This document shows positions 7,665-33,905 of a DNA stretch of 64,000 nt, piece by piece. The translations under genes were made by a program, and so were the position numbers. The stretch lies in contig WFSG01000040.1 of the NCBI GenBank assembly GCA_015486075.1, forward strand, positions 4,647 through 68,646. The letters are read 5' to 3'. How positions within the stretch are numbered: the first letter of the stretch is position 1; each line of letters begins with the position of its first letter. Under the pieces are notes generated by a model that ran no database searches, was not told where the DNA came from, and was given only the letters and a program-made list of their open reading frames with translations. This DNA is from Deltaproteobacteria bacterium. GTDB taxonomy: Bacteria > Desulfobacterota > Desulfomonilia > UBA1062.

Positions 7665-8040
7665 GCAGGACATAAGGCACAGGGCCCAGGGTACAAGGTA
7701 TAAGGTACAGGGTTTAAGGTACAAGGTGCAAGGTGTAAGGTACAGAAGACAAGGTTTCGGGTGCCGGGTATCAGGTACCAGGCAAATGACCTGGAGGCTG
7801 AGAGCTAATCTAACCCTTTGTCCCTTTGTGCCTTTTCTATCCTTGCGCCTTCTGCCCTACGCCTTCCGCCTTAAACCTTATACCTGGAACCCGGCACCTG
7901 AAACCCGATATCTGATACCTGTATCTTTTACCTTAAACCCTATACCTTAAACCCTATACCCTATACCTTAAACCCTATACCCTGTACCTTATACCTTGTA
8001 CCCTATGCCTTCCGCCTTATGCCTTATGCCTCTAACCTTA
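7665..8040. repeat. intergenic heptamer-repeat palindromic element, copy B
   Basis: A purine-rich heptamer array (GTACAAG/GTATAAG/GTTTAAG/GTGCAAG) at about 7690-7750. The core at about 7755-7870 is about 85% identical to the core of copy A (GGTGCCGGGTATCAGGTACCAGGCAAATGACCTGGAGGCTGAGAG...CTTTGTCCCTTTGTGCC...GCCTTCCGCCTTAAACCTTATACC). An inverted segment CCTGGAACCCGGCACC lies at about 7883. More than 15 CCYTRYA heptamers follow at about 7930-8040. Confidence 0.8.
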
Positions 8041-8892: not shown

Positions 8893-8920
8893 GGTATCCT
8901 CCTTCGCTCTTTAGGGTATT

Positions 8921-9967: not shown

Positions 9968-9980
9968 CTACAGATCTCCT

Positions 9981-13334: not shown

Positions 13335-13556
13335 ATGCACAATCAGAATTATTATTGCAAGCAAAAAATTGTGATGAGCCTATAAAAACATTAACGCTTG
13401 GCAGTCTTTATGTGCTATAAATAGTCACACTTACTAACATCAGGAAGACTAGTTGACCAGAATACCGTTCACACCATTAGAAAGAAAGATAGTGGGTCAG
13501 CTTCTGTTGCTACAATGTAATTTATCAAACGCACATTCATGCCTGAGGAATATTAT

Positions 13557-16608: not shown

Positions 16609-17580
16609 ATGCTAGATAATAAAACAGGAAGGATATTTTACATATGCCCTGACTTTGCACCACCATCAGGCGGTGTAAAGAGATTATACACGCATGTCCA
16701 GATACTAAGGGATAACGGTTATGAGGCGTATATAGTGCATTTTAACAAGGGCTTCAGGCCGAACTGGTTCGAGCACTCGGTTCCCATTATATATTTCTCT
16801 GATAACCCGAGCTTTTCTTCAACCGATGTCCTGGTAATCCCCGAGGTGTTCCCCGGATTGATGAAGACACTCAAGGATGTACCCAAAAAGGTAGTAATAG
16901 CGCTAAATCCCCATTCCATATTTCAGAACATGGACACGGGTGAAAACTGGAAAGACTACGGTGTCAGCTGGGTCATGACAAATTCCAGCACCATAAAAAG
17001 GTTTATAGAATGGAGCATGGGCATTGAGAACGTGCTTTTAATAGACACGGCCATTGACCGCCGCATGTTCTACTATTCTCCCGGGTTAAAGGAACTGAGG
17101 GTATCCTACATAAAGAGAAAGGATTCACTCTCTCCAGTTGTTGTGAAGATACTGAGTTCAAGAAAAGATGGTATGCCTCCCGTGGAATACATTAAGATAG
17201 AGAACCTAAGAGTCGAGGACTATGCAGCAATTCTCAGGCAGTCCGAGATATACCTTACCACATCAAGCTTTGAGGGATTCCCCAGGGCCATCATGGAGGC
17301 CATGGCATGTGGATGTATATGTATTGGCTCGGATGGCATATGCGGCAAAGACTATATCATTCCCTCAGGCGACACACAGAACTTCATAAAGGTGGAGTCC
17401 ATGAATTTCATTGAACTCGCAGAACGCATGGAGGAGCTGATCAAGAGAATAGCTAGAAAAGACCCTCTTGTGGAAAGAATCAGGAAAAACGCCATTATTA
17501 CTTCATCAAGGTTCACCGAAGAGGCCGAGAAAGAAAGCGTGCTCAGGTTCTGGAAAACATACTTTGAAGCCATTCAATAA
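16609..17580 (+). CDS. glycosyltransferase (GT4-like retaining fold)
   Basis: C-terminal EX7E-type region SSFEGFPRAIMEAMACGCICIGSDG; 323 aa; first gene of the glycan operon. Confidence 0.65.
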   Translation: MLDNKTGRIFYICPDFAPPSGGVKRLYTHVQILRDNGYEAYIVHFNKGFRPNWFEHSVPIIYFSDNPSFSSTDVLVIPEVFPGLMKTLKDVPKKVVIALNPHSIFQNMDTGENWKDYGVSWVMTNSSTIKRFIEWSMGIENVLLIDTAIDRRMFYYSPGLKELRVSYIKRKDSLSPVVVKILSSRKDGMPPVEYIKIENLRVEDYAAILRQSEIYLTTSSFEGFPRAIMEAMACGCICIGSDGICGKDYIIPSGDTQNFIKVESMNFIELAERMEELIKRIARKDPLVERIRKNAIITSSRFTEEAEKESVLRFWKTYFEAIQ

Positions 17581-17590
17581 GGAGGAAAAA

Positions 17591-18373
17591 ATGAAGGTAG
17601 TGATCCTTTGCGGCGGCATGGGAACAAGGCTCAAGGAAGAGACAAACTACCGTCCCAAGCCAATGGTAAACATAGGAAGCCGCCCTATCCTCTGGCACAT
17701 AATGAAGATATACGCCCATTATGGATTTAAACAATTTGTACTAAGCCTGGGATACAAGGGGGAAATGATCAAGGAATTCTTCTATAACTACGATCTCTTA
17801 AACAATGATGCAACCCTCAAGCTAGGCCATCCCGAAGAGACGCACATTCACCGAAACCAGGACAACGAAGACGGCTGGGAGATAACACTGGCCGACACAG
17901 GAGAAAAGGCGTTAAAAGGTGCCCGCCTGAAAAGGATTGAGAAATACATTGATGATGTTGAATTCATGGCGACCTATGGGGACGGCGTTGCAAACATCGA
18001 TATAAGAAGCCTCTTATCGTTCCACCACAGCCACGGCAAGCTAGCCACTGTCACGGGTATCAACCCGGCTTCACGTTTTGGAGAGCTGAAGATAAGTGGC
18101 GACAAGGTGGAATCTTTCAACGAAAAACCCAATAACGGTTCGGGCCTGATAAACGGCGGTTTCTTTGTCTTTAACAGGGCCATATTCAACTACCTCTATG
18201 ATGGGGATGACTGCGATCTCGAAGTCGGTGCCCTGGAACAGATTGCACGTGAGGGCCAGCTAATGGTCTATAAACACAGGGGATTCTGGGCTTGCATGGA
18301 TACAATAAGGGATATGGACTATCTGAATAAACTCTGGGCTGAAGGCAAGGCCCTATGGAAGGTATGGGATTAG
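17591..18373 (+). CDS. rfbF: glucose-1-phosphate cytidylyltransferase
   Basis: N-terminal MKVVILCGGMGTRL nucleotidyltransferase motif with CDP-glucose pyrophosphorylase-type architecture. The start was trimmed to the ATG at 17591, which is preceded by GGAGGAAAAA. Confidence 0.85.
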   Translation: MKVVILCGGMGTRLKEETNYRPKPMVNIGSRPILWHIMKIYAHYGFKQFVLSLGYKGEMIKEFFYNYDLLNNDATLKLGHPEETHIHRNQDNEDGWEITLADTGEKALKGARLKRIEKYIDDVEFMATYGDGVANIDIRSLLSFHHSHGKLATVTGINPASRFGELKISGDKVESFNEKPNNGSGLINGGFFVFNRAIFNYLYDGDDCDLEVGALEQIAREGQLMVYKHRGFWACMDTIRDMDYLNKLWAEGKALWKVWD

Positions 18374-18442
18374 CTTAGACTCTAGTTATAACCTGGGTAT
18401 GACATCCTAATCTAGAAATCTAGAATCAAATTAATAGCAGAT

Positions 18443-19540
18443 ATGTTCGGCAATATTTACAGAGGCAAGAGAGTACTCGTCACAGGTGATACCGGGTTCA
18501 AGGGGTCATGGCTTGCCCTCTGGCTTCTAGACCAGGGGGCAGATATTGTGGGTTATTCAAAAGACATCCCAACACATCCTTCCCATCACCATATTCTAGC
18601 CCTAGATTACGAGACAGTCTCGGGTGATATATGTGACCTAGAGAAACTCCAAAAGGTTATCAAATCTTTTAACCCGGACATTGTATTCCATCTGGCGGCC
18701 CAATCCATAGTTCGGAAATCCTACATAAGGCCCGTAGAGACGTTTGAAACCAATGTCATTGGTACTGTTAATGTCCTTGAGGCCTGTAGGGATACAGAAT
18801 CTGTAAGGGCTATTGTGAACGTCACGAGCGATAAATGTTACGAAAACAGGGAGTGGCCCTGGGGTTACAGGGAAAACGACAGGCTAGGTGGACATGATCC
18901 ATACAGCGCATCAAAAGGGTGCGCTGAGTTGGTAACAACATGCTTTCAAAAGTCGTTCTTTCCCCTTGAAGAGTACCAGAAAAGCCACCAGACACTTGTT
19001 GCAAGCGTTAGGGCCGGGAATGTTATAGGAGGCGGAGACTGGGCTGAAGACCGGCTTGTCCCGGATATCATGCGTGCCGCTAGCCAGAATAAAAGGGTTC
19101 AAATTCGCAACCCCCATGCAGTAAGACCATGGCAACATGTCCTTGAGCCCCTATCAGGATATCTGCTCCTAGGACAACTACTGCTCGAAGGAAACAAAGA
19201 GTTTTCCGGGGCATGGAATTTCGGTCCAATCGATTACGGGCATAGAGAGGTGCTTTCAGTTATCAGAGAGTTACAAGAACATTGGCCAGATATAGATTAC
19301 AATATAAAGGCAGATGAAGAAGATCTGCACGAAGCAAACCTATTAAAACTTGACTGCTCAAAGGCATATACAAGGCTAAAATGGAAACCGGTGTGGGATA
19401 GCTCCACAACATTTGCCAAGACCGCACAATGGTACAGGGCATACTATGAATCGGGGCTTGTTTTGAGCGAGGAACAATTGGCAGAGTATATAACTGAAGC
19501 CAAGCAGAGACAGGTATCGTGGTCTTCCGATGAGGGTTAA
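18443..19540 (+). CDS. rfbG: CDP-glucose 4,6-dehydratase
   Basis: Extended SDR: VLVTGDTGFKGSWL; catalytic YSASK; 365 aa. Typical RfbG length, located next to rfbF. Confidence 0.85.
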   Translation: MFGNIYRGKRVLVTGDTGFKGSWLALWLLDQGADIVGYSKDIPTHPSHHHILALDYETVSGDICDLEKLQKVIKSFNPDIVFHLAAQSIVRKSYIRPVETFETNVIGTVNVLEACRDTESVRAIVNVTSDKCYENREWPWGYRENDRLGGHDPYSASKGCAELVTTCFQKSFFPLEEYQKSHQTLVASVRAGNVIGGGDWAEDRLVPDIMRAASQNKRVQIRNPHAVRPWQHVLEPLSGYLLLGQLLLEGNKEFSGAWNFGPIDYGHREVLSVIRELQEHWPDIDYNIKADEEDLHEANLLKLDCSKAYTRLKWKPVWDSSTTFAKTAQWYRAYYESGLVLSEEQLAEYITEAKQRQVSWSSDEG

Positions 19541-20081
19541 ACTAGTCTCCATCCGGGATGCTTTTGTCATTGAACCGGAACCAATTGAGGATGACCGCGG
19601 ATTATTCACCCGCGTATTCTGCCAGAACGAGCTGAACGACATCCTTCATGGTGAAAACATAGTTCAGATAAACCACTCTGTTACCTGGCAGAAAGGGGCC
19701 ATACGCGGGATGCACTTTCAATATCCACCCAGAGCAGAGATCAAGATAGTCAAGTGCCTGCGCGGTAGCATATTTGATGTCATGATTGACCTGCGCAAGA
19801 AATCTCCCACCTTTCTGAAGTGGCATGGGGAGGTCTTAACCTCGGAAAACATGAAGATGATGTATATACCTGAAGGATTTGCGCATGGTTTCCAGACATT
19901 GGAAAAAGACTGCGAGATACTTTATCTTCATACCGAGTTTTATAGCCCAGAATACGAGGGAGGTGTACGTTACGACGATCCCATGATCGAGATCTCTTGG
20001 CCTCTCGCTGTAACGGATATATCGAAGAAAGACCAGAACTATCCTTTACTATCCCCGGCCTTCGAGGGCATCTCCTTATGA
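19530..20081 (+). CDS. NDP-4-keto-6-deoxyhexose 3,5-epimerase (RmlC/cupin family)
   Basis: RmlC-like cupin of 183 aa (IRGMHFQ..., ...HGFQTL...). It overlaps the rfbG stop by 11 nt. Confidence 0.75.
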   Translation: MRVKLVSIRDAFVIEPEPIEDDRGLFTRVFCQNELNDILHGENIVQINHSVTWQKGAIRGMHFQYPPRAEIKIVKCLRGSIFDVMIDLRKKSPTFLKWHGEVLTSENMKMMYIPEGFAHGFQTLEKDCEILYLHTEFYSPEYEGGVRYDDPMIEISWPLAVTDISKKDQNYPLLSPAFEGISL

Positions 20082-21304
20082 AATGCAGGTTCTGCGGCAA
20101 TTATCTTAAACATCAATTCATCGATATGGTTAGCGCTCCACCATCCAATTCATTCTTAACAAAAGAACAACTAGATAAGCCCGAAGTCTTTTACCCCTTA
20201 AGACTAATGGTCTGCGAGAAATGTTGGCTTGTACAGATCGATGAATACAAGAAGTCGGAAGAAATCTTTAATAAGGATTATACCTACTTTTCCTCATACT
20301 CAAAGACATGGCTCAGGCATGCAAAGAAATATGTGGACATGATCATCTCCAGGTTAAGTCTTAATGCCACCTCCCTGGTTATGGAGATCGCATCCAATGA
20401 TGGATACCTACTGCAATATTTTAAAGAAAAAGGGATCCCATGCATGGGCATTGAACCTAGCGTCAGTACCGCCCAAGAAGCAAGAAAGAAAGGGATTGAG
20501 ACATTGGAGGAATTCTTTGGCGTAGGACTCGCGGAGAAACTTTCCAATGAGGGCAGAAAGCCGGACCTGATCATAGGCAACAATGTACTTGCCCATGTCC
20601 CAAATATAAATGACTTCGTCAAGGGGCTAAAGATTATCCTGAAACCTGGTGGTGTTATAACCATGGAATTTCCTCACTTAATGCGCCTAGTTGAGGGAAA
20701 CCAGTTCGATACAATCTACCACGAGCACTTCTCGTATTTCTCATTACACACGGTAAACCGGATATTCTCAAGTCACGACCTTGTTATCTTCGATGTGGAG
20801 GAGCTCCCAACGCATGGCGGGTCCTTGAGGATCTATGCCAGGCATGTTGAAGACAACTCAAAACCTGTAGAGCAAAGAGTTGCTGCACTATTGGAAAAAG
20901 AGAAAACACGAGGGATGCTTGCGATAGATTATTATCTTGGTTTTCAGCATAAGGCGGACAAAGTGAAATATGCGTTTCTTTCATTTCTGGTGGAGCAGAA
21001 AAAACGTGGGAAGAAAGTGGTTGCTTACGGGGCTGCGGCTAAAGGCAACACCTTGCTAAATTACTGCGGGGTTAAAAAAGACTTGATAGAGTTTGTTGTG
21101 GATGCATCTCCTTATAAACAGGGCAAATATCTGCCTGGTAGCCACATACCAGTGGTTGCAGAAAAAGAGATCAAAAGGACAAAGCCGGATTATGTACTTA
21201 TCCTACCTTGGAATATCAAGGATGAGATCATGGAACAGCTAGGTTATATCCACGAATGGGACGGAAGGTTTGTGGTACCTATTCCAGAAATCGAGATATC
21301 TTGA
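20078..21304 (+). CDS. NDP-hexose C-methyltransferase (TylCIII-like; N-terminal Zn ribbon + class I SAM MTase + C-MT C-terminal domain)
   Basis: N-terminal CRFCGN...CEKC zinc ribbon; methyltransferase motif I VMEIASNDGYLL; C-terminal C-methyltransferase domain (VAYGAAAKGNTLLNYCG). The ATG at 20078 overlaps the preceding stop (ATGA). Confidence 0.8.
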   Translation: MKCRFCGNYLKHQFIDMVSAPPSNSFLTKEQLDKPEVFYPLRLMVCEKCWLVQIDEYKKSEEIFNKDYTYFSSYSKTWLRHAKKYVDMIISRLSLNATSLVMEIASNDGYLLQYFKEKGIPCMGIEPSVSTAQEARKKGIETLEEFFGVGLAEKLSNEGRKPDLIIGNNVLAHVPNINDFVKGLKIILKPGGVITMEFPHLMRLVEGNQFDTIYHEHFSYFSLHTVNRIFSSHDLVIFDVEELPTHGGSLRIYARHVEDNSKPVEQRVAALLEKEKTRGMLAIDYYLGFQHKADKVKYAFLSFLVEQKKRGKKVVAYGAAAKGNTLLNYCGVKKDLIEFVVDASPYKQGKYLPGSHIPVVAEKEIKRTKPDYVLILPWNIKDEIMEQLGYIHEWDGRFVVPIPEIEIS

Positions 21305-21321
21305 TTAAGGAAGGCGATGAT

Positions 21322-22215
21322 ATGAAGGTATTGGTTACTGGAGCAACTGGTTTTATTGGAGGTTATGTTGTTCGACAATTAATTAATCAAGGATATCGAG
21401 TTGTTGCAACTTCAAGAAATCCTGAAAAGGCAAAGGCCTTCGAATGGATTTCTCAGGTACAATACATTCCCTGTGATCTCAATGTGATGCGGAATGACTT
21501 CTTCCAATTTTTTCATCAACCTGATTTACTGATTCATTTGGCATGGGAAGGTTTGCCAAATTACGAAGACTTGTTTCATTTTGAGAAGAACCTGTTTTCC
21601 AATTACTCGTTTCTGAAAAACATAATCGAACATGGACTAAAACGCTTGGTGGTAACAGGTACATGCCTTGAATATGGAATGCAAAACGGAGCTTTAAGTG
21701 AGGACATGGAGGCTAGACCTGATAATCCTTATGGTTTGGCAAAGGATACCTTGCGAAGGTTCCTGGAACAACTGCAGAAAAAGATCAATTTTGATCTAAA
21801 ATGGATACGTCTATTTTATATGTATGGAAAAGGTCAGAGTCCCAATTCAATCCTATCTCAACTTGATAGATCGTTGGAAAATGGAGAAACCAACTTTAAC
21901 ATGTCGGGCGGAGAACAATTAAGAGATTATTTGCCGGTTGAAAGGGCTGCTACATACATAATTAGAATCGCGATGCAAGATAAGGTAAACGGAATTATCA
22001 ACTGTTGCAGCGGTAAACCTATCTCTATTAGAAAACTCGTGGAAAATTATTTAGAGAGGAAGCAAAAAAGTATCCATCTGAATTTAGGGTTTTATTCATA
22101 CACCGACTATGAACCAATGGCTTTTTGGGGAGATGCAACAAAGCTTAACATTGCTTTATCCAGTTTTGATCTTGATAAAGGTGATAGATCTTATGAACCA
22201 GATAGAACAATTTAA
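21322..22215 (+). CDS. NAD-dependent sugar epimerase/reductase (extended SDR; likely NDP-4-ketohexose reductase)
   Basis: MKVLVTGATGFIGGYV Rossmann motif; catalytic Y in YGLAKD; 298 aa. The start was trimmed to the ATG at 21322. Confidence 0.75.
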   Translation: MKVLVTGATGFIGGYVVRQLINQGYRVVATSRNPEKAKAFEWISQVQYIPCDLNVMRNDFFQFFHQPDLLIHLAWEGLPNYEDLFHFEKNLFSNYSFLKNIIEHGLKRLVVTGTCLEYGMQNGALSEDMEARPDNPYGLAKDTLRRFLEQLQKKINFDLKWIRLFYMYGKGQSPNSILSQLDRSLENGETNFNMSGGEQLRDYLPVERAATYIIRIAMQDKVNGIINCCSGKPISIRKLVENYLERKQKSIHLNLGFYSYTDYEPMAFWGDATKLNIALSSFDLDKGDRSYEPDRTI

Positions 22216-22927
22216 ACGTGAATGTATGAGGCGTATCAGGCAGTATGGAAAGAACAAGAAATTACTAGATGCGGCGAGACTTTTTGTACAAGAATCTACC
22301 ATACCCAAATACTCCTACAACTTCACCTGGCTTGGCCGTCCAATAATTCAGTATCCACAGGACATCATCGCAATGCAGGAGATTATATGGCAGGTAAAAC
22401 CCAACCTTATTATAGAAACAGGGATTGCACATGGTGGAGGACTTATCTTCTACGCGTCCATGCTTGAACTTCTGGGTGGAGATGGCCAGGTGCTTGGTAT
22501 CGACATTGATATCAGGGAACACAACAGGGTTGAGATAGAAAGACACCCCATGTTCAAACGAATTACAATGATAGAAGGTTCGTCTATTGATGAAGATGTT
22601 GTCCAGAAGGTCCGTGACTTTGCAAAGGATAAAAAGAGGGTTCTAGTTGCACTTGATTCCATGCATACACACGAACACGTGCTAAAAGAGCTTGAACTTT
22701 ATTCTCCCCTGGTAACAAAAGGTAGCTACCTTGTTGTCTTTGACACCATCATTGAAGACATGCCAGATGGCTTCTTTCCCGACCGACCATGGGGAAAGGG
22801 TAACAATCCCAAGACAGCGGTATGGGAATTCATGAAAAACAATGACCGTTTTGAGATCGACAAGGAGATTGAGAATAAATTGCTGATCACCGTTGCACCC
22901 GATGGATATCTAAGATGCATTAAGTAA
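22193..22927 (+). CDS. CmcI/cephalosporin-hydroxylase-family sugar O-methyltransferase
   Basis: CmcI-family motif IIETGIAHGGGLIFYA, of the rhamnosyl-O-methyltransferase-like family. The start at 22193 overlaps the preceding gene's 3' end. Confidence 0.7.
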   Translation: MNQIEQFKRECMRRIRQYGKNKKLLDAARLFVQESTIPKYSYNFTWLGRPIIQYPQDIIAMQEIIWQVKPNLIIETGIAHGGGLIFYASMLELLGGDGQVLGIDIDIREHNRVEIERHPMFKRITMIEGSSIDEDVVQKVRDFAKDKKRVLVALDSMHTHEHVLKELELYSPLVTKGSYLVVFDTIIEDMPDGFFPDRPWGKGNNPKTAVWEFMKNNDRFEIDKEIENKLLITVAPDGYLRCIK

Positions 22928-22958: not shown

Positions 22959-25900
22959 ATGAGAACAAACAAGACACCATTTGTCAGCATAGGTATGCCT
23001 GTATACAATGGCGAGCGTTACATAAAGCAGGCACTGGATTCTTTACTATCCCAGGACTACGACAACTTTGAGTTAATAATCTCTGATAATGCTTCTACCG
23101 ATAGTTCGCCAGATATCTGTCTTGAGTATAAAAATAAGGATGGCCGTGTCAAGTTTTACCGCAATGATAAGAATATTGGACCTAATGATAACTTCAATCG
23201 TGTCTTTGAACTATCATCAGGCCAATATTTCATGTGGGCAGCGTGTGATGACCTATGGACACCTAATTACATATCATCACTTGTAAAAGCTTTAGCCTCT
23301 GATAAAAATGCAGTTCTAGCATTTTCACAACTGAACAATATTGACGAAAACGGTAATATATGCCGTGAATACCCGAACCTCCATCTTCTATCATCAAAGG
23401 CCCCCCTGCCTGACAGGCTAAATAATATAATATGGTTCAGGGAAGAGGATGGGAAGGCAAACCTAGTATACGGCCTCATCAGGAGTGATATCTTAAAGAA
23501 GATTGACATATTCAAATCTTACGGTTTTGGAAACTGGGGTGTTGATTATCTTTTAGTATTTAGACTGGCGTTGTTCGGCAAATTTTTATTTGTAAATGAT
23601 TCTTGTTTTTACAAGAGACTGACAGAAGAAAACATCTCGAGATGGGCAAACACTTCTCCTGAAGAGTACTGCCACCTTATTCAGGGTTACTTCCAGGGCT
23701 ACAGAACCATTATCAAAGAAAGCAATCTACGAGACATTGAGAAAGATACACTACTGATGTCCATCTCTGCAAGGGAAGGCCATTGGTACTCCCGCATCCT
23801 AGGTTCGAATACTATTGAAGATACAGCTTCCAAAATAAGATCCATGGTTGAGAAAACTCACGATTATACAGCTCCATCCATCATAAATAATAAACAACAT
23901 CAGCACACACCCAACATGGACAGGCAGGATACCAACACAAATAAGCCTTCCCAGATAATAGATAAGACAATACTATTTCTGAGTGTTGGTAGTATCAATT
24001 ACGATTGTAATATCAACTTTTATGAACCCCTAAAGGCCATCTTCAAGAAAGCAATAAACTACAACTACATGGAAAGGCTAGAAATCTTAGGTAAAAAAGC
24101 GATGAATGAAGAGATTATCCACATAGTAAAAAGCAAAAAGCCCGACTATGTATTCATTCACACCTATCAGGATCAAATAGAACTATCCACTTTGGACAAG
24201 ATAAACATGCTTGGTGTAAAAACAATTGCATGGTTTTCAGATGATCACTGGCGCTTTGATGATTATTCAAGATTCCTGGCACCGCATGTCTTTTGCTCAA
24301 TAACAACCGACAAATACGCGGTGGATAAATATAAGAGTCTGGGATTTAACGTCATAAAATCACAATGGGCCTCAAATCAACACCATTATAGAAAGACCAA
24401 TACTCCTCTATTGTATGACGTTACCTTTGTGGGACAAAACTATGGCAAAAGAAAAGATAACTTATTTTATCTAAAAACCAAGAATGTCCCACTTAGCGTA
24501 TTTGGAAGAGGTTTTGGGACATTCCTTGAGTTCGATGAGATCATCAAGATATTCAATGCCAGCAAGATCAATCTTAACTTTAGCGGCAGCTCCCGGGACG
24601 ATAACATCAAGCAAATAAAGGGAAGGATTTTTGAAGTCCCTATGTGTAAAGGCTTCCTGTTAACCGAGTACGCCGAAGGCATAGAGGAGTATTTCGAAAT
24701 AGGCAAGGAAATAGAGTGTTTTGATGATATAAAGGATGCCCTTGATAAGATCCAATACTACCTAAAACACGAAGACAGGCGTCTAGAGATAGCCGAGAAA
24801 GGCCATATACGTGCACTAAGGGATCACACATGGGAAAAGAGATTAAGGGATTTGTTCCTCGAAGTGGAAAGACTTGAGAAAAGCTCAAGCGTGCCTCACG
24901 GGCATGACTGGATAACTACCCAGAAAGACATGCAAAAAGAAATCAGCGATCACAAGAAACATAATATCCCTTACAGGAAAAAGTATGAGATGGGTTTTCA
25001 TGGCGACAGTTACCTGCTTACGCTCATAGACCATGTGCTTACAAGGTGTGATGCATTTATAGAAACAGGGACATACATGGGTGATTCCCTTGAATATGTA
25101 GCTCGAAACTTCAGCCATCTCCATATATTCTCATGCGAACCAAAGACAGAACACATAACAGTTGCCAGAAACAAACTCCGTCCTTACCTACATAATATTA
25201 CACTCGACCAGGTTAAGTCACCAGATTTCTTATATAAAATAGTGGAAGATCACCCCGATCTTGTCAACAAGGATGTGGCCTTCTGGCTTGATGCTCACTC
25301 ATTTGGATATAAATGGCCATTGAAAGATGAGATAAGGTTTATAACAGGGACATTCAAGAAGGCATACATCTTTATAGATGACTTCAAGATACCAGGCAGG
25401 CCTGAATTTCAGTATGACATCTACGATGGTCAAGAGTGTTCCTGGGAATTTATCCATGATGAGATGTGTACGGATAAGGAATATTTAATATATCTACCCA
25501 AATACAAAGAGAAAACATCCAGGCATCATCCCCTTGTAGGGTGGGCCCTTATAGAATTTGGCCACGCAACTATGCAAATACCAGACTCACTAAAAGATCA
25601 CCTCATCCAAACATCTGCCTATAGACTGCCAGCCGAGGGCAAGTTTGATGAAGAACATCATGATCATGATGTATACAATGAATCAGTGTCATACGGGGAG
25701 AACTCCAACAGTTATATGGCAGATCACTGGTCAGATAAATCCGTCCACCCTGGTAGCGAAAAGAATAAGAACGCTAAACACCCGATTCGTCCATCAGGGG
25801 GTAAAAAGTATGTGTCAAGAGAGCATATAAAGCATGTTCTTCTAACTACCTCGGCTGCACCTAACCAGTCTCCTTTCTCAACGACAGAGAAAAGACCTCC

Positions 25901-28900
25901 CATAGGTTTAGGCTTCCTCATATCGGTGTTAAGAAACGCCGGGCACAAAGTATTCTTCATAGACAATTACCTCAGGCCAGACAATTTCCTTGAAACAGAT
26001 TTTCTCCAGAGAAACAGGATTGATTACGTGGGGATATATGCAAACACCATCTGCTATAGGGATACGCTGAGGATGCTTTACAGGCTTGAATACCTCAGGC
26101 GCACCGGCAGATGGGGAGGTAAAATCATCGTGGGTGGCCCTCATACAACCGTTGCCTTGGATACAATACCTGATTTTGTAGATTACATAGTCCAGGGTGA
26201 AGGAGAGAAGGCCATCCTTGATATTGTGGAAGAAAGGATATCTGAACGTATTGTAAAGTACCCACGTATTAAAGACCTGGATAAACTTCCCATGCCTGCC
26301 TGGGATTACTTTGTCAGAATGCCGTATAACTGGGGGGTAGACTGGTTTCGGGAACAACCTGTGTTCACTATGAATACGAGTAGAGGTTGTCCATTCAGAT
26401 GCACTTTCTGCTCAGTTGGCTCTATCTGGGGAAAACAGTATACCTATTTCAGTGCTGAACGCATCGTCTCTGATATCGAATACCTAACCAGGGAATACGG
26501 TGCAAAGGGGATATATTTCAGGGAAGACAACTTTACCCTAAACAAAAAAAGACTCGTAGAGTTCTGCGAGTTGTTGCTCAAGAAAGGAATAAACATACCA
26601 TGGGCATGCGAGACAAGGGTCTCCAACCTCAACAAGGACATCGTTGAACTAATGTCTCGTGCAGGGGCATGTGGTTTTTATTTTGGCGTGGAGAGCGGTT
26701 CTCAAAGGATACTGGATTTCCTGAAAAAGGATATCAAGGTGGATCAAACAAGAAAGACCTTTGAGCTATGCCACAGGTTTGGTATCAATACAGCCGCAAG
26801 TGTGATAGTTGGAGTCCCAACTGAGACAGAGGATGACCTAAGGCAGACTTACTCACTGTTGAATGACATAAAACCAACAGTTACCTGGTTCAACGTTTTT
26901 GTAGGTATACCGAACAGCGAGCTGTACAAGTATACTATAAAGAATAGGCTTTATGAGTTCATCGATGATAGAGGCCTAGTCTACTTAAAAGGTCACAATG
27001 AACGGGTTAAAAGATTCTATGGTGGGCATATCAATGCAAGTATACCAGCAATACTGGACAATAACGAAAAAACGGCAAATCCAGAGATCACTGTTGTCAT
27101 GCCTGTGTACAACGCTGAGAGATACATAGATAAGGCCATAAAGAGTGTGCTGGCACAAACATATCAAGATTTCGAATTTATAATCATAGATGACGCATCA
27201 ACGGACAACACTAGTGAGATCCTAAAAAGATTTGACGATCCAAGGATTAGGACAATTAAGAACCCTAATAATCTTGGGTTAACAAAATCCCTCAACAAAG
27301 CCATACGTGAAGCAAAAGGTACGTACATAGCTAGAATGGATGCAGATGATATCTCTATACCGCACAGGCTTGAAACCCAGCTCAACTTCCTAAAAAAGAA
27401 CACGGATCATGCACTTGTTGGAAGTTCTTATTACCAGATAGATGATACTGGAAGGATAATCTCCCTGGTCAGGGTACTAAGCGATGATAACGAAATACGT
27501 GCTGGTTTAAAAAAACAGAACTGGTTTGGCCATGGTAGCATAATGATGCTGAAAAGCGCGTTCCTCCAATGCGGAGGTTATGATGAATCTTTTAAATACG
27601 CACAGGATTATGACCTCTGGCTAAGGATCTCAGAGAAGTACAAGGTGGCCAATATAGGAGAGCCTCTTTATCAGTGGAGATCTACTGCTGGAAATATCTC
27701 AAATGCGAGGATTCAAGAGCAGAAATATTTTGCCAGCCTCGCTGTCAAGAAAGCAGAGGAAAGGAAAAAGGCACGTATTATAGACAAAACAGATAAACCC
27801 TTGGTCTCTGTTATTGTCCCTACGTATAACCGTCCTGACATGCTTAGAGAGGCCTTAACGAGCATATTGAACCAGAGCTATCAGAACTATGAGATCATAG
27901 TGGTAAACGATGGAGGTATAAACATAGAAAGCATTATACACCAGCTAAACAGCAAAGGTAATATCACATATGTCAAACATAACATAAACAAGGGTCTTGC
28001 TGCATCAAGGAACAGTGGAATCAGCCTTGCAAAAGGCAAGTATATTGCTTACCTGGATGACGATGATGTGTTCTATCCCGATCACCTGGAGACCTTGGTA
28101 AACCTCCTGGAAGAAACCGACTACAAGGTAGCCTACACTGATGCCTACAGGGCTCACCAGGTATTGTATGACAATTCATATAAGATAACTGCAAGGGATA
28201 TCCCGTACTCGGTGGATTTCTCCAAGGACCTAATACTAATACGTAACCTCTCTCCTGTAAACTGCTTCATGCATGAAAAAAAATGCCTTGAAAAGGTTGG
28301 CCTTTTTGACGAGGCACTCACAACCCACGAGGACTGGGATCTCTGGATCAGGCTATCCAGGAGTTATGACTTCAAACATATAAAAAAGGTTACCACAGAG
28401 TTCAGGGACAGGAGAGACGGTTCAACAATGACAAGTTCCAAACTCCCAGACTTCCTTAGAACAACGCGTATCATATATAAAAGATACAGCAGCTATACAA
28501 TGGGTAGGCAAGATATTCAAAGGGCACAAGAACAAAATATCCATCTACTAGAAAACGAGATATCAAAATATAGTATTTCAGTCTCAATGAAATGCTCCAT
28601 CATCATCCCTGTTTTCAACCAGGTTGAATACACGAAGAAATGCCTCGAGGCACTCGTGGAAAACACGCCAGATGATCTCTACGAAGTGATTATCGTGGAT
28701 AACGGTTCAACCGACGGCACAAAAGAGTTTCTTAAATGCCTTGAAGGCGATGTAAAAATCATCACCAATCAAGAAAACCTAGGTTTTGCAAAGGCATGTA
28801 ACCAGGGCGCAAGAGAGGCAAGCGGCAAATACCTGGTCTTTCTGAATAATGATACCATACCCCAAAAAGGATGGCTGGAAGAGCTGGTCAGGGTAGCCGA

Positions 28901-31268
28901 TGCGGATGAAGACATTGCAGTGGTAGGCAGCAAGTTAATGTTCCCGGATGGTACCATCCAGCATGCAGGCGTTGGAATCGCTGATAGCAAGTTATTAGCT
29001 GGACACCTCTACAGGGGATATCCTTCTGACTTTCCTCCTGCAAACAAGCCAAGGGATTTCCAGGTAGTAACCGGTGCATGCATGCTCGTAAAAAAAGACA
29101 TATTCTTTAGCATAGGTGGCTTTGACGAAGCATACGTAAACGGGTGCGAGGACATCGACCTCTGCTTCAAGATTAGAGAGGAAGGCAAAAGGGTCTTCTA
29201 CAACCCCAGGAGTGTACTCACCCATTTCGAGGGAAAGACCGAGGGCAGACAGAATAAGATGGATGATAATGCAAAGATCCTGTTTGAGAGATGGGGAGGC
29301 AGGGTAAAACCTGACTACGAGAGATATCTTATGGATGATGGGTTCAGGATCGAGGAGACACCCGAAGGAGAGAAAAAATGGGTATACCACGAAGAACTAT
29401 CCAAGCCTGTGCTTAGTGTCGTGATAGTAACCTACAATTCCCTTGGCTATATTGGAAAGTGTCTTGACAGCATAAAGACTCAAACCCCTATTCCATACGA
29501 AGTCGTAGTAATAGACAACAACTCAAGTGACGGGACAAGGGACTTTCTTAAGGGCATGAAAGGTATAAAAATTATACTGAACGATGAGAACAGGGGCTTC
29601 TCAAAGGCCACGAACCAGGGAATTAAAGCAGCAAGAGGCGAACACATAGTGTTCTTGAACCCAGATACCGTCGTCACCTGGGACTGGGCATGGCACATGA
29701 TGCTCCACCTCAAAAAGGGTGTTGGGGCAGTGGGACCCGTGTCCAACTACGCGGCAGGCCTGCAGAGGTACGAGCTTTACATGAAGGAGAAAAACATGGG
29801 CAATATCGATGTAAACAAGCTCGCTGAAAAGCTGTACACCTGGAACATGGGTAAGGCCATGGATACAAGGCTACTCACGGGCTTTTGCATGATGACAAAG
29901 AAAGAGATAATAGACGAGGTGGGCATGCTCGATGAAGACCTGTTCCTAGGGAGCGACGACCTGGAATTCTCCTGGAGGCTAAAGGAGAAGGGATATAGGC
30001 TTGTTGTAGCCACTGATACCTTCATATACCACAAGGCACAGGCGAGCTTTGCCACCGAGCCCGAGGAAAAGATGAAGAGACTCACCCAGGAAAGCCAGGA
30101 CACGCTTTACCTGAAGCTAGAGAAGTACTACGGCAAGGGCAGGGTACCTTCCAGCAAGGAGCTATGGGGCATGGACTGGTTCAGGCCTTCCAGAAAATTA
30201 ACGCGTCCATCCCTTCCCCTCACGTCCATTATCATGCTCACGTTCAACCAGCTTGACTACACCAGGAAATGCCTGGAGAGCATAGAGAAACACACCAAGG
30301 CAAGGTACGAGCTCATAATCGTGGACAACGGGTCAACGGATGGCACGGTTGAGTTCTTAAAGGATTATGCAAAAACCCGCGCGAATGCAGAGCTCATTCT
30401 CAATAAAGAGAACCTGGGCTTTGCAAGAGGTAATAACCAGGGCATTGAGAAGTCAAAGGGCGACTACATAGTCCTTTTAAACAACGACGTTGTGGTGACT
30501 AAAGGCTGGCTGGATAAAATGGTCTCGTACATGGAGGAGAACCCTGATATCGGCATGGCAGGACCTGTATCAAACAATGTCTCTGGACCACAGAAGGTAG
30601 AGGATGCACCATCGGGCGAGGACATGGACAAGATACATGCCTTTGCAAGGCATATCTCAGAAGAGAATGCAGGTAAGGTCGAGGATGTCTTGAGGCTCGT
30701 TGGTTTTTGCCTGCTTATCAGAAAAGAAGTAATAGACCTCATAGGTCCCCTGGACGAGAACTACGGCAGCGGTAACTTTGAAGACGACGACCTGTGCCTT
30801 AGGTCTTCCATAGCAGGCTTCAGGCATGTAATCTTAAAAGACGTATTCGTACACCACTTTGGCAGCAAGACCTTTGAAGGGAACAACATAGATTACAACT
30901 CAAGCCTTGACAAAAACAGGGAATACTTTGCCAGGAAATGGGACGGCATAGTAGAGATGCAAGAAGGCAGCTACAAGGTAAGGCTCGAGCCCAAGGACAG
31001 GTTAAATGCACTCGTACGGATGGGAGAGATGGAACACGAAAAGGGTAGGATCAATACAGCTGTAAACATATTCAAGAAGGCACTCATGCTCGAACCCTTA
31101 AACAGCCGCGTTATGAATGATCTTGGTGCAATACAATGGGAACTGGGAGAAAGGGAGTCTGCTATCAGGACCTTCCAGAAGGCACTTAGTATAAACCCGG
31201 ACGACGAGGATGCGAGGTTCAACCTTGAGCAGGCACTTTCAACCGGCAAAAGGCCAGGGGCCATCTGA
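22959..31268 (+). CDS. 2769-aa multi-domain glycan-assembly mega-enzyme: GT2 - CgeB-like GT - MTase-like - B12-binding radical SAM - five further GT2 domains - TPR
   Basis: A single uninterrupted ORF with RBS AAAGGGGA. Approximate domain positions by nucleotide are as follows. GT2 #1, about 22990-23700 (MPVYNGERYI...ISDNASTDSS). CgeB-like glycosyltransferase domain, about 23965-24880 (...VTFVGQNYGKRKDNL...DHTWEKRL). Class I methyltransferase-like domain, about 24982-25510 (FIETGTYMGDSLEY). B12-binding radical SAM domain, about 25810-27000, with RGCPFRCTFCS at 26388-26412. GT2 #2, 27085-27760. GT2 #3, 27795-28560. GT2 #4, 28587-29390. GT2 #5, 29406-30200. GT2 #6, 30214-30960. TPR repeats, 30990-31268. 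Each GT2 domain carries D..DD/DxD-type motifs (e.g. IIVDNGSTDGT). Confidence 0.8.
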   Translation: MRTNKTPFVSIGMPVYNGERYIKQALDSLLSQDYDNFELIISDNASTDSSPDICLEYKNKDGRVKFYRNDKNIGPNDNFNRVFELSSGQYFMWAACDDLWTPNYISSLVKALASDKNAVLAFSQLNNIDENGNICREYPNLHLLSSKAPLPDRLNNIIWFREEDGKANLVYGLIRSDILKKIDIFKSYGFGNWGVDYLLVFRLALFGKFLFVNDSCFYKRLTEENISRWANTSPEEYCHLIQGYFQGYRTIIKESNLRDIEKDTLLMSISAREGHWYSRILGSNTIEDTASKIRSMVEKTHDYTAPSIINNKQHQHTPNMDRQDTNTNKPSQIIDKTILFLSVGSINYDCNINFYEPLKAIFKKAINYNYMERLEILGKKAMNEEIIHIVKSKKPDYVFIHTYQDQIELSTLDKINMLGVKTIAWFSDDHWRFDDYSRFLAPHVFCSITTDKYAVDKYKSLGFNVIKSQWASNQHHYRKTNTPLLYDVTFVGQNYGKRKDNLFYLKTKNVPLSVFGRGFGTFLEFDEIIKIFNASKINLNFSGSSRDDNIKQIKGRIFEVPMCKGFLLTEYAEGIEEYFEIGKEIECFDDIKDALDKIQYYLKHEDRRLEIAEKGHIRALRDHTWEKRLRDLFLEVERLEKSSSVPHGHDWITTQKDMQKEISDHKKHNIPYRKKYEMGFHGDSYLLTLIDHVLTRCDAFIETGTYMGDSLEYVARNFSHLHIFSCEPKTEHITVARNKLRPYLHNITLDQVKSPDFLYKIVEDHPDLVNKDVAFWLDAHSFGYKWPLKDEIRFITGTFKKAYIFIDDFKIPGRPEFQYDIYDGQECSWEFIHDEMCTDKEYLIYLPKYKEKTSRHHPLVGWALIEFGHATMQIPDSLKDHLIQTSAYRLPAEGKFDEEHHDHDVYNESVSYGENSNSYMADHWSDKSVHPGSEKNKNAKHPIRPSGGKKYVSREHIKHVLLTTSAAPNQSPFSTTEKRPPIGLGFLISVLRNAGHKVFFIDNYLRPDNFLETDFLQRNRIDYVGIYANTICYRDTLRMLYRLEYLRRTGRWGGKIIVGGPHTTVALDTIPDFVDYIVQGEGEKAILDIVEERISERIVKYPRIKDLDKLPMPAWDYFVRMPYNWGVDWFREQPVFTMNTSRGCPFRCTFCSVGSIWGKQYTYFSAERIVSDIEYLTREYGAKGIYFREDNFTLNKKRLVEFCELLLKKGINIPWACETRVSNLNKDIVELMSRAGACGFYFGVESGSQRILDFLKKDIKVDQTRKTFELCHRFGINTAASVIVGVPTETEDDLRQTYSLLNDIKPTVTWFNVFVGIPNSELYKYTIKNRLYEFIDDRGLVYLKGHNERVKRFYGGHINASIPAILDNNEKTANPEITVVMPVYNAERYIDKAIKSVLAQTYQDFEFIIIDDASTDNTSEILKRFDDPRIRTIKNPNNLGLTKSLNKAIREAKGTYIARMDADDISIPHRLETQLNFLKKNTDHALVGSSYYQIDDTGRIISLVRVLSDDNEIRAGLKKQNWFGHGSIMMLKSAFLQCGGYDESFKYAQDYDLWLRISEKYKVANIGEPLYQWRSTAGNISNARIQEQKYFASLAVKKAEERKKARIIDKTDKPLVSVIVPTYNRPDMLREALTSILNQSYQNYEIIVVNDGGINIESIIHQLNSKGNITYVKHNINKGLAASRNSGISLAKGKYIAYLDDDDVFYPDHLETLVNLLEETDYKVAYTDAYRAHQVLYDNSYKITARDIPYSVDFSKDLILIRNLSPVNCFMHEKKCLEKVGLFDEALTTHEDWDLWIRLSRSYDFKHIKKVTTEFRDRRDGSTMTSSKLPDFLRTTRIIYKRYSSYTMGRQDIQRAQEQNIHLLENEISKYSISVSMKCSIIIPVFNQVEYTKKCLEALVENTPDDLYEVIIVDNGSTDGTKEFLKCLEGDVKIITNQENLGFAKACNQGAREASGKYLVFLNNDTIPQKGWLEELVRVADADEDIAVVGSKLMFPDGTIQHAGVGIADSKLLAGHLYRGYPSDFPPANKPRDFQVVTGACMLVKKDIFFSIGGFDEAYVNGCEDIDLCFKIREEGKRVFYNPRSVLTHFEGKTEGRQNKMDDNAKILFERWGGRVKPDYERYLMDDGFRIEETPEGEKKWVYHEELSKPVLSVVIVTYNSLGYIGKCLDSIKTQTPIPYEVVVIDNNSSDGTRDFLKGMKGIKIILNDENRGFSKATNQGIKAARGEHIVFLNPDTVVTWDWAWHMMLHLKKGVGAVGPVSNYAAGLQRYELYMKEKNMGNIDVNKLAEKLYTWNMGKAMDTRLLTGFCMMTKKEIIDEVGMLDEDLFLGSDDLEFSWRLKEKGYRLVVATDTFIYHKAQASFATEPEEKMKRLTQESQDTLYLKLEKYYGKGRVPSSKELWGMDWFRPSRKLTRPSLPLTSIIMLTFNQLDYTRKCLESIEKHTKARYELIIVDNGSTDGTVEFLKDYAKTRANAELILNKENLGFARGNNQGIEKSKGDYIVLLNNDVVVTKGWLDKMVSYMEENPDIGMAGPVSNNVSGPQKVEDAPSGEDMDKIHAFARHISEENAGKVEDVLRLVGFCLLIRKEVIDLIGPLDENYGSGNFEDDDLCLRSSIAGFRHVILKDVFVHHFGSKTFEGNNIDYNSSLDKNREYFARKWDGIVEMQEGSYKVRLEPKDRLNALVRMGEMEHEKGRINTAVNIFKKALMLEPLNSRVMNDLGAIQWELGERESAIRTFQKALSINPDDEDARFNLEQALSTGKRPGAI

Positions 31269-32615: not shown

Positions 32616-33905
32616 ATGACATTAGCATACCTTGCATCAACAGCTGAGGGCCGTTTTTTCTACCACGGCCATTCATACAAGCTCTCCCCCATTACCTATC
32701 CAGACGTAAATATCCATAACATACTTGTTATGGGAGGCCCTAGCCTGGCAAGGTCAATATGCAAGGAAAACAGTGGGCTCATGACCGGTCTGAATTTCGA
32801 TGCCTCCTTGATTCCAGGTTTCCCCGAGCCACTTGGCATGGCCGTGTCCGAGATACCATGCGGGAAAAGGCTCATGCTTCTGAGGGCAGGAGGCATAGGG
32901 GACCTGATAATGCTCACCCCTGCATTGAGGCAGCTCAGATCAAGGTGCAGATCAGGGGTAAAGATAGCGCTTTCAACTCTCCAGGACAGAAAGGCATTGT
33001 TCGAGGACCTGGGCTTTGTAGATGATTTTTATCCACATCCCATAAGGCTATCAGACCTCGTGGACTCGGCTGATTTCTACGTTGACTTCTCAGACAAAAG
33101 GGGCATCTTCAACCACGTTGACATGATAGACTTCCACCTTGACTGCCTGGGTATAGACCCATCAAGTGTGCCCAAAGAACAGAAAATACCCGAGATATCC
33201 AAGGGACTTTCAAGAAACCATGCAATAAGGGAAGAGATGAAAAGGCTATCAAGGCATGGCCGCCCGCTTGTGATCTATTCACCTGGCGCAAGCGACAGGA
33301 TAAGGTACCTACCAGACGACATACTCGGGCTTCTTGCAACAAGTTTCAAGGGCATCGACTACGTTGTACCCGGTAGCATGCCTAAGACCTGTGAGGGCAT
33401 GGAGAACGTATTCAGTATTGATACGTCTTCTGGCCTGGATGCCTTTGTGACCGCAATCGCAGCATCACACGCTGTCATCACCACGGACAGCTCTGCTTAC
33501 CACATAGCATCGGCACTAAGCAAGCCATGCCTTGTTTTCTTTGGCCCTATCTCGTCGAGTATACGGAGCAAATACTATCCAACGATCGTGGCACTTGATG
33601 CTTGCTATTTCGGCAAGACATGTGCAAGTCCGTGCGGGATAAGTGCACTTACAGAGACACCACCTGTGATACCCATTGGAGCAAACAGGGTAAGGGCACT
33701 TGAAAAAGGGGTAAAGATAACTACTTACTCGGGCGAGTCATTCACCTTTGATCCTGGTAAAGGATGTCCCGAGGCACAGTACCTGGGCAGTAGCACAAGC
33801 CCTTGCCTCATGTCATTTAGCCCGGAAGACATAATAAAGGGATTCGAGAGAGTGATGGATATGGTGGAAAGCCCGGAGAGGGAAAGAAAGAGAGAATCGC
33901 TGTGA
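32616..33905 (+). CDS. GT9-family glycosyltransferase (heptosyltransferase-like), paralog 2
   Basis: Same architecture as 31283-32590 (RLMLLRAGGIGDLIMLTPAL, TTDSSAYHIASALSKPCLVFFGP). Tandem duplicate. Confidence 0.65.
   Translation: MTLAYLASTAEGRFFYHGHSYKLSPITYPDVNIHNILVMGGPSLARSICKENSGLMTGLNFDASLIPGFPEPLGMAVSEIPCGKRLMLLRAGGIGDLIMLTPALRQLRSRCRSGVKIALSTLQDRKALFEDLGFVDDFYPHPIRLSDLVDSADFYVDFSDKRGIFNHVDMIDFHLDCLGIDPSSVPKEQKIPEISKGLSRNHAIREEMKRLSRHGRPLVIYSPGASDRIRYLPDDILGLLATSFKGIDYVVPGSMPKTCEGMENVFSIDTSSGLDAFVTAIAASHAVITTDSSAYHIASALSKPCLVFFGPISSSIRSKYYPTIVALDACYFGKTCASPCGISALTETPPVIPIGANRVRALEKGVKITTYSGESFTFDPGKGCPEAQYLGSSTSPCLMSFSPEDIIKGFERVMDMVESPERERKRESL

Follow-up and report, generated by a model that had tools for sequence, protein, structure and literature searches.

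We analysed a 64,000-nucleotide stretch of DNA, hereafter the window (contig WFSG01000040.1 of assembly GCA_015486075.1, Deltaproteobacteria bacterium), in which one uninterrupted reading frame encodes a 2769-residue multi-domain glycan-assembly enzyme, here called the mega-enzyme. Embedded among its glycosyltransferase domains is a radical SAM (S-adenosyl-L-methionine) domain (residues 958-1370), which looks like a functional radical SAM module of class B architecture, with a B12-binding-type Rossmann domain ahead of the radical SAM core. Judged from comparison of its relatives, this module and the family-2 glycosyltransferase (GT2) domain that follows it, GT2b, are a conserved functional unit of which the mega-enzyme is one of many elaborations, and the module probably performs radical chemistry on sugars during glycan building.

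Pfam searches matched the N-terminal part of the embedded domain to PF02310 (residues 980-1088; 44.6 bits against a gathering score of 32.1, E = 1.5e-11) and its C-terminal part to Radical_SAM PF04055 (residues 1138-1301; 88.3 bits against 29.5, E = 8e-25), which bears out the first-pass annotation of this DNA in placing a B12-binding-type Rossmann segment and a complete radical SAM core inside a glycosyltransferase mega-enzyme. The three strings quoted in that annotation were found where it had put them: PIGLGFLISVLRNAGHKVFFIDNY in the B12-binding-type segment (residues 981-1004, nucleotides 25899-25970), CPFRCTFC at the cluster site (nucleotides 26388-26411) and GIYFREDNF (residues 1184-1192, nucleotides 26508-26534). 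The last of these had been described as a glycine-rich SAM-binding motif; it is the SAM-binding beta-2 'GGE-position' motif, aligned with AVFRDPVF of AprD4, but it is not glycine-rich. The span proposed for the domain, 25810-27000, was right in its location, and alignment with standalone homologues starting MNILLTTSAAP... gave the slightly wider limits 25830-27068. The word 'polyprotein' does not suit the product, which is a multi-domain fusion joined by low-complexity linkers, with nothing suggesting processing.

The features that define the radical SAM superfamily were all found, namely CxxxCxxC, a PF04055 score above gathering, a partial TIM-barrel (triosephosphate isomerase barrel) fold and the SAM motifs. 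The cluster cysteines C1144-x3-C1148-x2-C1151 were invariant in 30/30 homologues, and the SAM-binding motifs YFRED (aligned with FRDP of AprD4), GVESGS and VGVPTET were invariant or nearly so. The AlphaFold2 model of the domain (predicted local distance difference test, pLDDT, of 89) has a Rossmann part of five strands and five helices, the arrangement typical of 'class I' B12-dependent radical SAM enzymes (PMC12931638), and its top structural neighbours were two-domain B12-type radical SAM folds: AprD4, MgmA/QCMT, TsrM, CysS, OxsB and TokK. Two other possibilities were considered and rejected: that the N-terminal domain holds an auxiliary Fe-S cluster in the style of methylthiotransferases, since it has one invariant cysteine only (C93 of the domain), and that the enzyme is a MiaB/RimO methylthiotransferase, on account of the same single cysteine, the lack of a TRAM domain by Pfam and scores of 47/251 or lower.

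Across an alignment of 30 family members, the window copy included, 71 residues were invariant, among them those of CxxxCxxC, YFRED, GVESGS and GxPTE, and the window copy keeps all 71. A codon-by-codon alignment of the window gene with that of L086, an 87%-identical homologue, gave the radical SAM domain a ratio of nonsynonymous to synonymous divergence (dN/dS) of 0.077, the lowest of all mega-enzyme domains, and the adjacent linker one of 0.405; by these values the domain is under strong purifying selection. It is because of these two results, the complete set of family-invariant residues and the lowest dN/dS, that the domain is judged functional. The alternative of an inactive, degenerate passenger, a general possibility in very large fusions for which no specific evidence was found, is scarcely credible for a domain that has intact cluster and SAM motifs and this degree of constraint and that dozens of independent mega-enzymes retain in the same place. 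One relative (P0130, 1760 residues, from an ENA metagenome) carries an intein (PF14890, residues ~743-1021) that splits the radical SAM cluster motif, with the junctions ...RGCPFR / CLTGNT...VLVHN / CSYCSVGS. The second cluster cysteine of that protein is the +1 residue of the C-extein, so that its [4Fe-4S] site should be able to form only after protein splicing.

The mega-enzyme chain comprises seven glycosyltransferase-type domains (six GT2 and one CgeB-like) and two SAM-utilising domains, and no clear transmembrane segment was seen on inspection of its sequence. The window matches an ENA metagenome scaffold, and independent JGI metagenomes (P0124, L086 and L087) hold a 2765-residue protein that is 87% identical with the same ten-part domain order, so the open reading frame (ORF) is not an assembly artefact; this homologue and the dN/dS values together ruled out both an assembly chimera and a pseudogene. 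Of the relatives with a named source, those nearest to the mega-enzyme come from a Desulfobacteraceae and a Thermodesulfobacteriota metagenome-assembled genome, which makes a host within the Desulfobacterota probable. Other mega-enzymes built on the pair of radical SAM domain and GT2b (P0125-P0135) range from 1572 to 3698 residues, and in related mega-enzymes the CgeB-like domain is kept upstream of the radical SAM domain with 57-69% identity. Synonymous divergence (dS) between the window gene (22959-31265) and L086:1472-9742 was very uneven, being 0.26-0.30 in GT2a, the CgeB-like domain and domain X (the domain just ahead of the radical SAM domain), 0.53 in the radical SAM domain and 1.47 in GT2b, and this unevenness suggests recombination or domain swapping within the gene.

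The coupling to GT2b was analysed by cutting the window protein into domains and tiling every multi-domain relative against them. In the first searches, 25/25 fused proteins that run C-terminally into a glycosyltransferase domain had a GT2b-like domain next after the radical SAM domain (38-67% identity), and in many relatives GT2b was followed by GT2c and often by GT2d. A metagenome scan added 80 true family loci of 59-93% identity. By simple ORF calling, the family gene was multi-domain at 57 of 85 loci, and in 56 of those 57 GT2b lay directly C-terminal of the radical SAM domain. Downstream DNA was available for about 23 standalone genes: a GT2b-type gene came next in 13 of them and second in 3, and in L004, the one of these last cases annotated by Pfam, a class I methyltransferase gene stands between the radical SAM gene and the GT2b gene. 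Overall, 72 of about 80 informative loci showed coupling to GT2b, compared with 0/68 control loci. The controls were distant class B relatives (26-36% identity), which had any GT2 within two genes in 12/68 cases and a GT2b-like one in none; they came from a scan of genome contigs with the family alignment, in which one back-translated pattern (GCPFxC[TSA]FC) proved too generic and 2/80 loci (L006 and L007) were true family members. The near-constant pairing within the family, set against its absence in the control, is our reason for regarding the radical SAM domain and GT2b as a conserved functional unit. The link to glycosyltransfer and glycan tailoring drawn in the first-pass annotation is thus a conserved evolutionary coupling to GT2b and not an accident of one gene. 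The closest named models of GT2b itself, EpsE and TuaG, both scored far below cut-off.

A family search with the excised domain covered 5.8 billion proteins. The best 120 clusters had 58-76% identity to the query, at least 71% of which was covered, and the family is tight, with 58-93% identity to more than 120 clusters. Most members are standalone proteins of about 450 residues with the B12-binding-type and radical SAM domains; many are fused to GT2, and a few to a class I methyltransferase, to the C-terminal domain of a sugar C-methyltransferase or to TPR repeats. The family occurs in both bacteria and archaea and is abundant in sediment and other anoxic metagenomes, its named hosts being Candidatus Ranarchaeia (archaea), Schekmanbacteria, Cloacimonetes, Desulfobacteraceae, Thermodesulfobacteriota and Planctomycetota, and the source annotations of relatives are generic ('YgiQ/UPF0313' at JGI, 'radical SAM protein').

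Classification with profile models, which the first-pass annotation had proposed as a check, gave a PF02310 match above its gathering score and no curated class B family model at its cut-off. NCBIfam returned 32 matches, with scores against cut-offs of 156/750 for ApyD, 144/481 for BchE, 136/360 for the ladderane-type lipid radical SAM model, 129/600 for PhpK and 120/578 for HpnJ, and of 70/650, 106/360, 75/700 and 36/500 across the HpnR, QCMT, KedN5 and TsrM-type models. Since none of these models reached its cut-off, no family name can be transferred, and no NCBIfam model or paper naming the family was found. Phosphonate-type P-methylation (PhpK, Sden_1168) was rejected in view of the sub-threshold scores and of the lack of phosphonate-biosynthesis genes by Pfam among window ORFs of at least 150 residues. 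A 2026 review counts over 100 sequence groups among the B12-type radical SAM enzymes, which are mostly uncharacterised, and the characterised and named members that it lists include none acting on polysaccharides or glycoprotein glycans (PMC12931638). In our full-text literature search, no paper connected radical SAM enzymes having a cobalamin/B12 domain with the glycans of O-antigen, capsule, exopolysaccharide, S-layer or flagellin. We propose, on sequence grounds, that the GT2b-coupled enzymes are a new family, delimited by an identity of at least about 58%, the IYFREDNF and SPFST-EKRPP-G-G signatures and a GT2b fused or at most two genes downstream, into which the window domain fits. This GT2-coupled, often glycosyltransferase-fused and glycan-associated family is a new variety within the B12-type radical SAM enzymes, whose chemistry we infer.

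AprD4, from apramycin biosynthesis (PDB 6FD2, NF033070), was the best match to the window domain in both sequence and structure. Both have a Rossmann domain at the N terminus, ahead of a radical SAM barrel, and the substrate of AprD4 is a carbohydrate. However, identity is about 20%, the AprD4 model scored 113.1 bits against a cut-off of 500 with an alignment spanning domain residues 107-383 only, and the N-terminal domain taken alone had no match to that model. AprD4 is a radical SAM 1,2-diol dehydratase that acts on an aminoglycoside sugar and binds no cobalamin (PMC12931638). Unlike the window domain, it is standalone, with no GT2 fusion or pairing, and acts on a small aminoglycoside in partnership with the reductase AprD3; an AprD3-like NAD(P)H-dependent or short-chain dehydrogenase/reductase (SDR) partner was not conserved beside the family in the annotated loci, the neighbours of standalone genes or the upstream elements. 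GenK, GenD1/GntE and Fms7 of aminoglycoside pathways, likened here by description and not by sequence comparison, have the same combination of B12-binding and radical SAM domains, but are standalone enzymes of antibiotic clusters and not glycan-assembly modules; GenK, GenD1 and Fms7 methylate unactivated sugar carbons after glycosylation (PMC12931638). The structurally characterised class I enzymes of the B12 type, QCMT/MgmA (9CCB), TsrM (6WTE), CysS (9N1B), OxsB (5UL2) and TokK (7KDX), were 15-24% identical to the window domain. Their substrates are peptides, a protein, a carbapenem, a nucleotide and an aromatic methoxy group, and they carry extra C-terminal domains, whereas the window domain is without them and has the downstream motif G-x-Y-x-N. 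The general annotation bin of the domain, BchE-like or COG1032 'B12-binding domain-containing radical SAM protein' (TIGR02026, TIGR04072), aligned over both domains, but those families have tetrapyrrole or lipid substrates and no GT2 coupling in the control, and the domain scored far below the equivalog cut-offs of their models (144/481 and 136/360).

Motifs for cobalamin binding have been derived from the structures of OxsB, TsrM and TokK: a Gly-Gly on beta4 that forms the pocket for the dimethylbenzimidazole tail, a Gly-Glu that opens alpha5, a long beta1-alpha1 'His loop' without His (11 residues in TsrM and TokK) and a downstream motif G/A-x-S/T-x-X on the beta3-alpha3 loop that contacts the lower face of cobalamin (PMC9204698). 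In the window domain the beta1-alpha1 loop, SAAPNQSPFSTTEKRPP, has 17 highly conserved residues and no His. VGGPH (residues 1058-1062, nucleotides 26130-26144), with G-G-P-H invariant, lies on the strand formed by residues 116-120 of the AlphaFold2 model (beta4), and in the invariant GEGE (residues 1080-1083, nucleotides 26196-26207) the second G-E is where helix alpha5 starts, at model residue 143. The downstream motif reads GIYANTIC (nucleotides 26031-26054), its G, N, T and C being invariant or nearly so across the family, and at its third position most members have Tyr while a few have Ser, the Ser version having the OxsB pattern G-x-S-x-N. Hence three of the four structure-derived motifs are present and invariant and the fourth is a variant, while the SAM motifs are intact. 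The first-pass annotation had named motif alignment as the test of its cobalamin view, and the outcome favours that view without proving it.

When the N-terminal domain was searched alone, its matches were weak (E = 4e-6 at best) and fell entirely on B12-type radical SAM families (ladderane-type, BchE, HpnR, PhpK and QCMT) and the B12 domain of 4q37; in the PDB, a profile of this domain alone returned 4q37 and chance Rossmann matches, and AprD4 was not retrieved. Given the above-threshold PF02310 match, the Rossmann model, three of the four motifs and these N-terminal matches, we consider it more probable than not that the Rossmann domain binds cobalamin, and cobalamin use and C-methylation by the domain are plausible. 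A different reading takes the Rossmann domain for a cobalamin-free relic, as in AprD4, and has the module perform SAM-only radical chemistry on a glycan sugar: a 1,2-diol would be dehydrated to leave a deoxy-keto sugar, or the carbon that loses its hydrogen would be oxidised or epimerised. PF02310-like domains do occur in the non-binders AprD4 and ArsL (PMC12931638), and AprD4 is the nearest named enzyme; with the N-terminal matches confined to B12-type families and no conserved AprD3-like partner, we hold this reading to be unlikely.

The domain directly upstream of the radical SAM domain, here called domain X, had no Pfam, NCBIfam or PDB sequence match. Its AlphaFold2 model (pLDDT 82) gave MnmM, catechol O-methyltransferases (COMT) and TrmR as best Foldseek matches, and on this structural prediction domain X is of the class I SAM-methyltransferase fold. 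It has at least 227 homologues in bacteria and cyanobacteria, mostly standalone 'hypothetical proteins' of about 230 residues and some fused to FkbM or Methyltransf_24, and its motifs are GFHGD, FIETGT..GST, SCEPD, FWLDAH, IDDFKVPG and YYP.Y.EKTS.HHPL.GW. The upstream elements of 33 family members, taken as the N-terminal fused domain or else the preceding gene, were by Pfam class I SAM methyltransferases of the Methyltransf_11/25 type in 23/33 cases. By profiles of our own, 45/85 loci had such a methyltransferase or domain X either fused or within two genes; as these profiles are narrow, the figure is a minimum. Since domain X, methyltransferase-like in predicted fold, sits at the usual methyltransferase position, the window protein is, on this model, an instance of a cassette of methyltransferase, radical SAM domain and GT2b.

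An arrangement of this kind recalls the logic of CysQ and CysS, in which the methyltransferase would make a sugar O-methyl ether and the cobalamin-dependent radical SAM domain would add one or more methyl groups to the methoxy carbon, so that O-ethyl or O-isopropyl-type ethers result. We regard this as improbable: the methyltransferase association is not universal and that of GT2b nearly is, and sequence similarity to CysS is weak (E = 6e-4). It also counts against such a product that we know of no report of O-ethyl or branched alkoxy sugars from bacterial glycans.

The mega-enzyme lies within a glycan cluster with at least 12 glycosyltransferase-type domains (Table 1). Two of the six genes directly upstream of it were assigned by curated models, the glucose-1-phosphate cytidylyltransferase by TIGR02623 (341 bits, cut-off 300) and the CDP-glucose 4,6-dehydratase by TIGR02622 (490 bits, cut-off 278), so that the operon is cytidine diphosphate (CDP)-based and not deoxythymidine diphosphate (dTDP)-based as judged from sequence, with CDP-6-deoxy-3-C-methyl-O-methyl-hexose as its predicted product. 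This sugar presumably resembles the CDP-vinelose of Azotobacter vinelandii, for which we know of no defined biosynthetic genes so far. The operon gene at 19997-21304 (PF08421, PF13489 and PF08484) is the TylCIII-type C-methyltransferase that the first-pass annotation had recognised upstream, and because it is indeed there, the suggestion that the pathway may install more than one C-methyl group is reasonable. The obligate pairing with the GT2b subtype, the methyltransferase-fold domain directly upstream and the CDP-based sugar pathway go beyond what that annotation had contained.

Table 1. Coordinates of the mega-enzyme, its domains and the surrounding features in the window.
Feature	Position	Strand	Description and basis
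Mega-enzyme ORF	22959..31268	+	stop codon included; 2769 aa
GT2a, aa 1-300	22959..23858	+	N-terminal GT2 domain; Pfam PF00535, domain tiling
CgeB-like Glyco_trans_1_2 domain, aa 335-645	23961..24893	+	PF13524, 98.9 bits; best stretch aa 509-632
Domain X, aa 660-905	24936..25673	+	class I SAM-methyltransferase fold (predicted)
Linker, aa 906-957	25674..25829	+	low-complexity, His/Asn/Ser/Lys-rich sequence; pLDDT <50; relaxed selection
B12-binding-type Rossmann domain, aa 958-1101	25830..26261	+	PF02310; AlphaFold2 secondary structure
Radical SAM partial TIM-barrel core and C-terminal cap, aa 1102-1370	26262..27068	+	
CPFRCTFC (CxxxCxxC)	26388..26411	+	predicted [4Fe-4S] cluster site; three invariant Cys
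GT2b, aa 1371-1605	27069..27773	+	GT2 subtype, conserved partner of the radical SAM family
GT2c, GT2d, GT2e and GT2f, aa 1606-2675	27774..30983	+	four more GT2 domains; Pfam
C-terminal TPR repeats, aa 2676-2769	30984..31265	+	Pfam TPR_1, TPR_2, TPR_8, TPR_11
Hybrid sensor kinase	13539-16325		Cache, PAS and receiver domains; directly upstream of the glycan cluster
Glycan cluster, about 22 kb	16609-38857		GT1, CDP-sugar pathway, mega-enzyme, two GT9-like proteins, GT2-TPR protein, CgeB-like/DUF3880 protein
CDP-sugar operon, six genes	17468..22927	+	glucose-1-phosphate cytidylyltransferase, CDP-glucose 4,6-dehydratase, 3,5-epimerase, TylCIII-type C-methyltransferase, SDR reductase, CmcI-type O-methyltransferase; Pfam
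Tandem ORFs of ~430 aa	31283-32590 and 32616-33905	+	weak partial GT9 (heptosyltransferase) match, 29 and 21 bits, same ~40 model residues
GT2-TPR protein	33902-36433		second TPR-bearing protein of the cluster beside the mega-enzyme

The two tandem ORFs downstream of the mega-enzyme look like divergent GT-B enzymes without a proper family model. No flippase, polymerase, ATP-binding cassette (ABC) exporter or priming phosphoglycosyltransferase was found by Pfam among window ORFs of at least 150 residues, and this, together with the lack of a clear transmembrane segment in the mega-enzyme, suggests that the glycan is assembled in the cytoplasm on a protein or other soluble acceptor. WbdA and WbdD of Escherichia coli O9a are a multi-domain glycan-assembly system of glycosyltransferase modules and terminating methyltransferase or kinase modules, and systems of this type resemble the mega-enzyme in holding glycosyltransferase and tailoring domains in one or adjacent polypeptides; we know of none with a radical SAM domain. 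Elsewhere in the window, an unrelated set of genes lying upstream on the minus strand (6417-12503) encodes a glycyl-radical enzyme (pyruvate formate-lyase-like, 839 residues), its radical SAM activase with ferredoxin-type clusters (8921-9967) and a YcaO-domain protein (6417-7724), and there are genes for a GntR/FadR-type regulator (12539-13300) and an aldehyde:ferredoxin oxidoreductase (45097-47061). The glycyl-radical enzyme set and the oxidoreductase point to a strictly anaerobic host.

Standalone or two-domain family members were found in glycan loci of three kinds: an exopolysaccharide locus with Wza/Wzc/Wzx (L002), a flagellar island that holds FlaF/FlbT and TPR-GT41 proteins (L003) and an ABC-transporter O-polysaccharide locus with a Wzt bearing a carbohydrate-binding module (L004; ENA NODE_20, 80 kb). 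At positions 1412-8782 of L004, a standalone family member is surrounded by the transporter genes (Wzm, and Wzt with the carbohydrate-binding module at its C terminus), by two GT2 genes and by genes for a sulfatase-family protein and a class I methyltransferase. Since the Wzt module in such systems recognises a chain-terminating modification, the radical SAM enzyme and the methyltransferase of that locus could, by analogy, make a terminal cap.

The reading that we tentatively favour is that the class B module, as one evolved unit with GT2b, C-methylates a glycan sugar by means of cobalamin. The mega-enzyme would assemble a glycan in the cytoplasm, drawing in part on the CDP-activated branched deoxyhexose of the upstream operon, and GT2b would install one of the sugars. 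SAM would then be reductively cleaved at the [4Fe-4S] cluster of the adjacent radical SAM domain, and the 5'-deoxyadenosyl radical would abstract a hydrogen from an unactivated carbon of the GT2b sugar or its neighbour. By analogy with GenK and GenD1, the sugar radical would most likely be quenched by a methyl group from methylcobalamin in the Rossmann domain, giving a C-methylated residue, and the flanking class I methyltransferase would add an O-methyl group. The domain identity, the intact motifs, the purifying selection, the couplings to GT2b and the methyltransferase and the glycan-cluster context are observed, and the cobalamin, the sugar substrate and the methylation we infer. Methylation is supported because no reductase partner is conserved and because every class B group with a characterised member includes C-methyltransferases, among them the sugar-acting GenK, GenD1 and Fms7 (PMC12931638).

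Several points weigh against C-methylation by means of cobalamin. AprD4 lies inside the similarity network of B12-type radical SAM enzymes, yet does not bind cobalamin (PMC12931638), and the GG/GE motif test may not discriminate, as AprD4 may carry these motifs too. The downstream motif of the family usually has Tyr at the position where Ser/Thr contacts dimethylbenzimidazole in the solved enzymes. Moreover, none of the 32 NCBIfam matches reached its cut-off, the methyltransferase association was seen in only about half of the loci with the profiles used, and the family is uncharacterised.

The module might alternatively act on a non-sugar acceptor, such as a protein side chain or a lipid later glycosylated by GT2b, or on the nucleotide-sugar donor before transfer, as the fusion shows that the two activities are consecutive and not in which order they come. 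The lack of Pfam-detected export and priming genes and the TPR end of the mega-enzyme would fit direct modification of a protein in the cytoplasm, and one relative is in a flagellar locus. However, polysaccharide loci of the Wzx/Wzy and ABC types, whose acceptors are lipid-linked glycans, contain this module too, which makes a common sugar substrate more economical than a common protein or lipid, and modification of the donor would not obviously favour physical fusion to a transferase; we consider such substrates quite unlikely. Modification of a sugar within the glycan would make the module the first enzyme of the radical SAM type, and also the first that depends on cobalamin, to work in-line in a glycan-assembly enzyme, altering a residue after its addition to a polysaccharide or protein-linked glycan by C-methylation or, with the partner methyltransferase, by forming a larger alkyl ether; taken as a whole, this claim is conceivable but doubtful.

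With regard to annotation, a PF02310 match and the wording 'class B' should not count as proof of cobalamin use, and the methyltransferase-fold family of domain X still lacks a model. With orphan radical SAM enzymes the main difficulty lies in finding the substrate, and here the fusion narrows that search, since what GT2b makes, or else its acceptor, should be the substrate of the adjoining module. The tie of the family to one glycosyltransferase subtype points to a class of radical modification of sugars in cell-surface glycans for which structural glycobiology has yet to name an enzyme, and if the module does work in-line on a glycan sugar, a widespread cassette of methyltransferase, radical SAM and GT2 domains would yield glycan structures not yet described.

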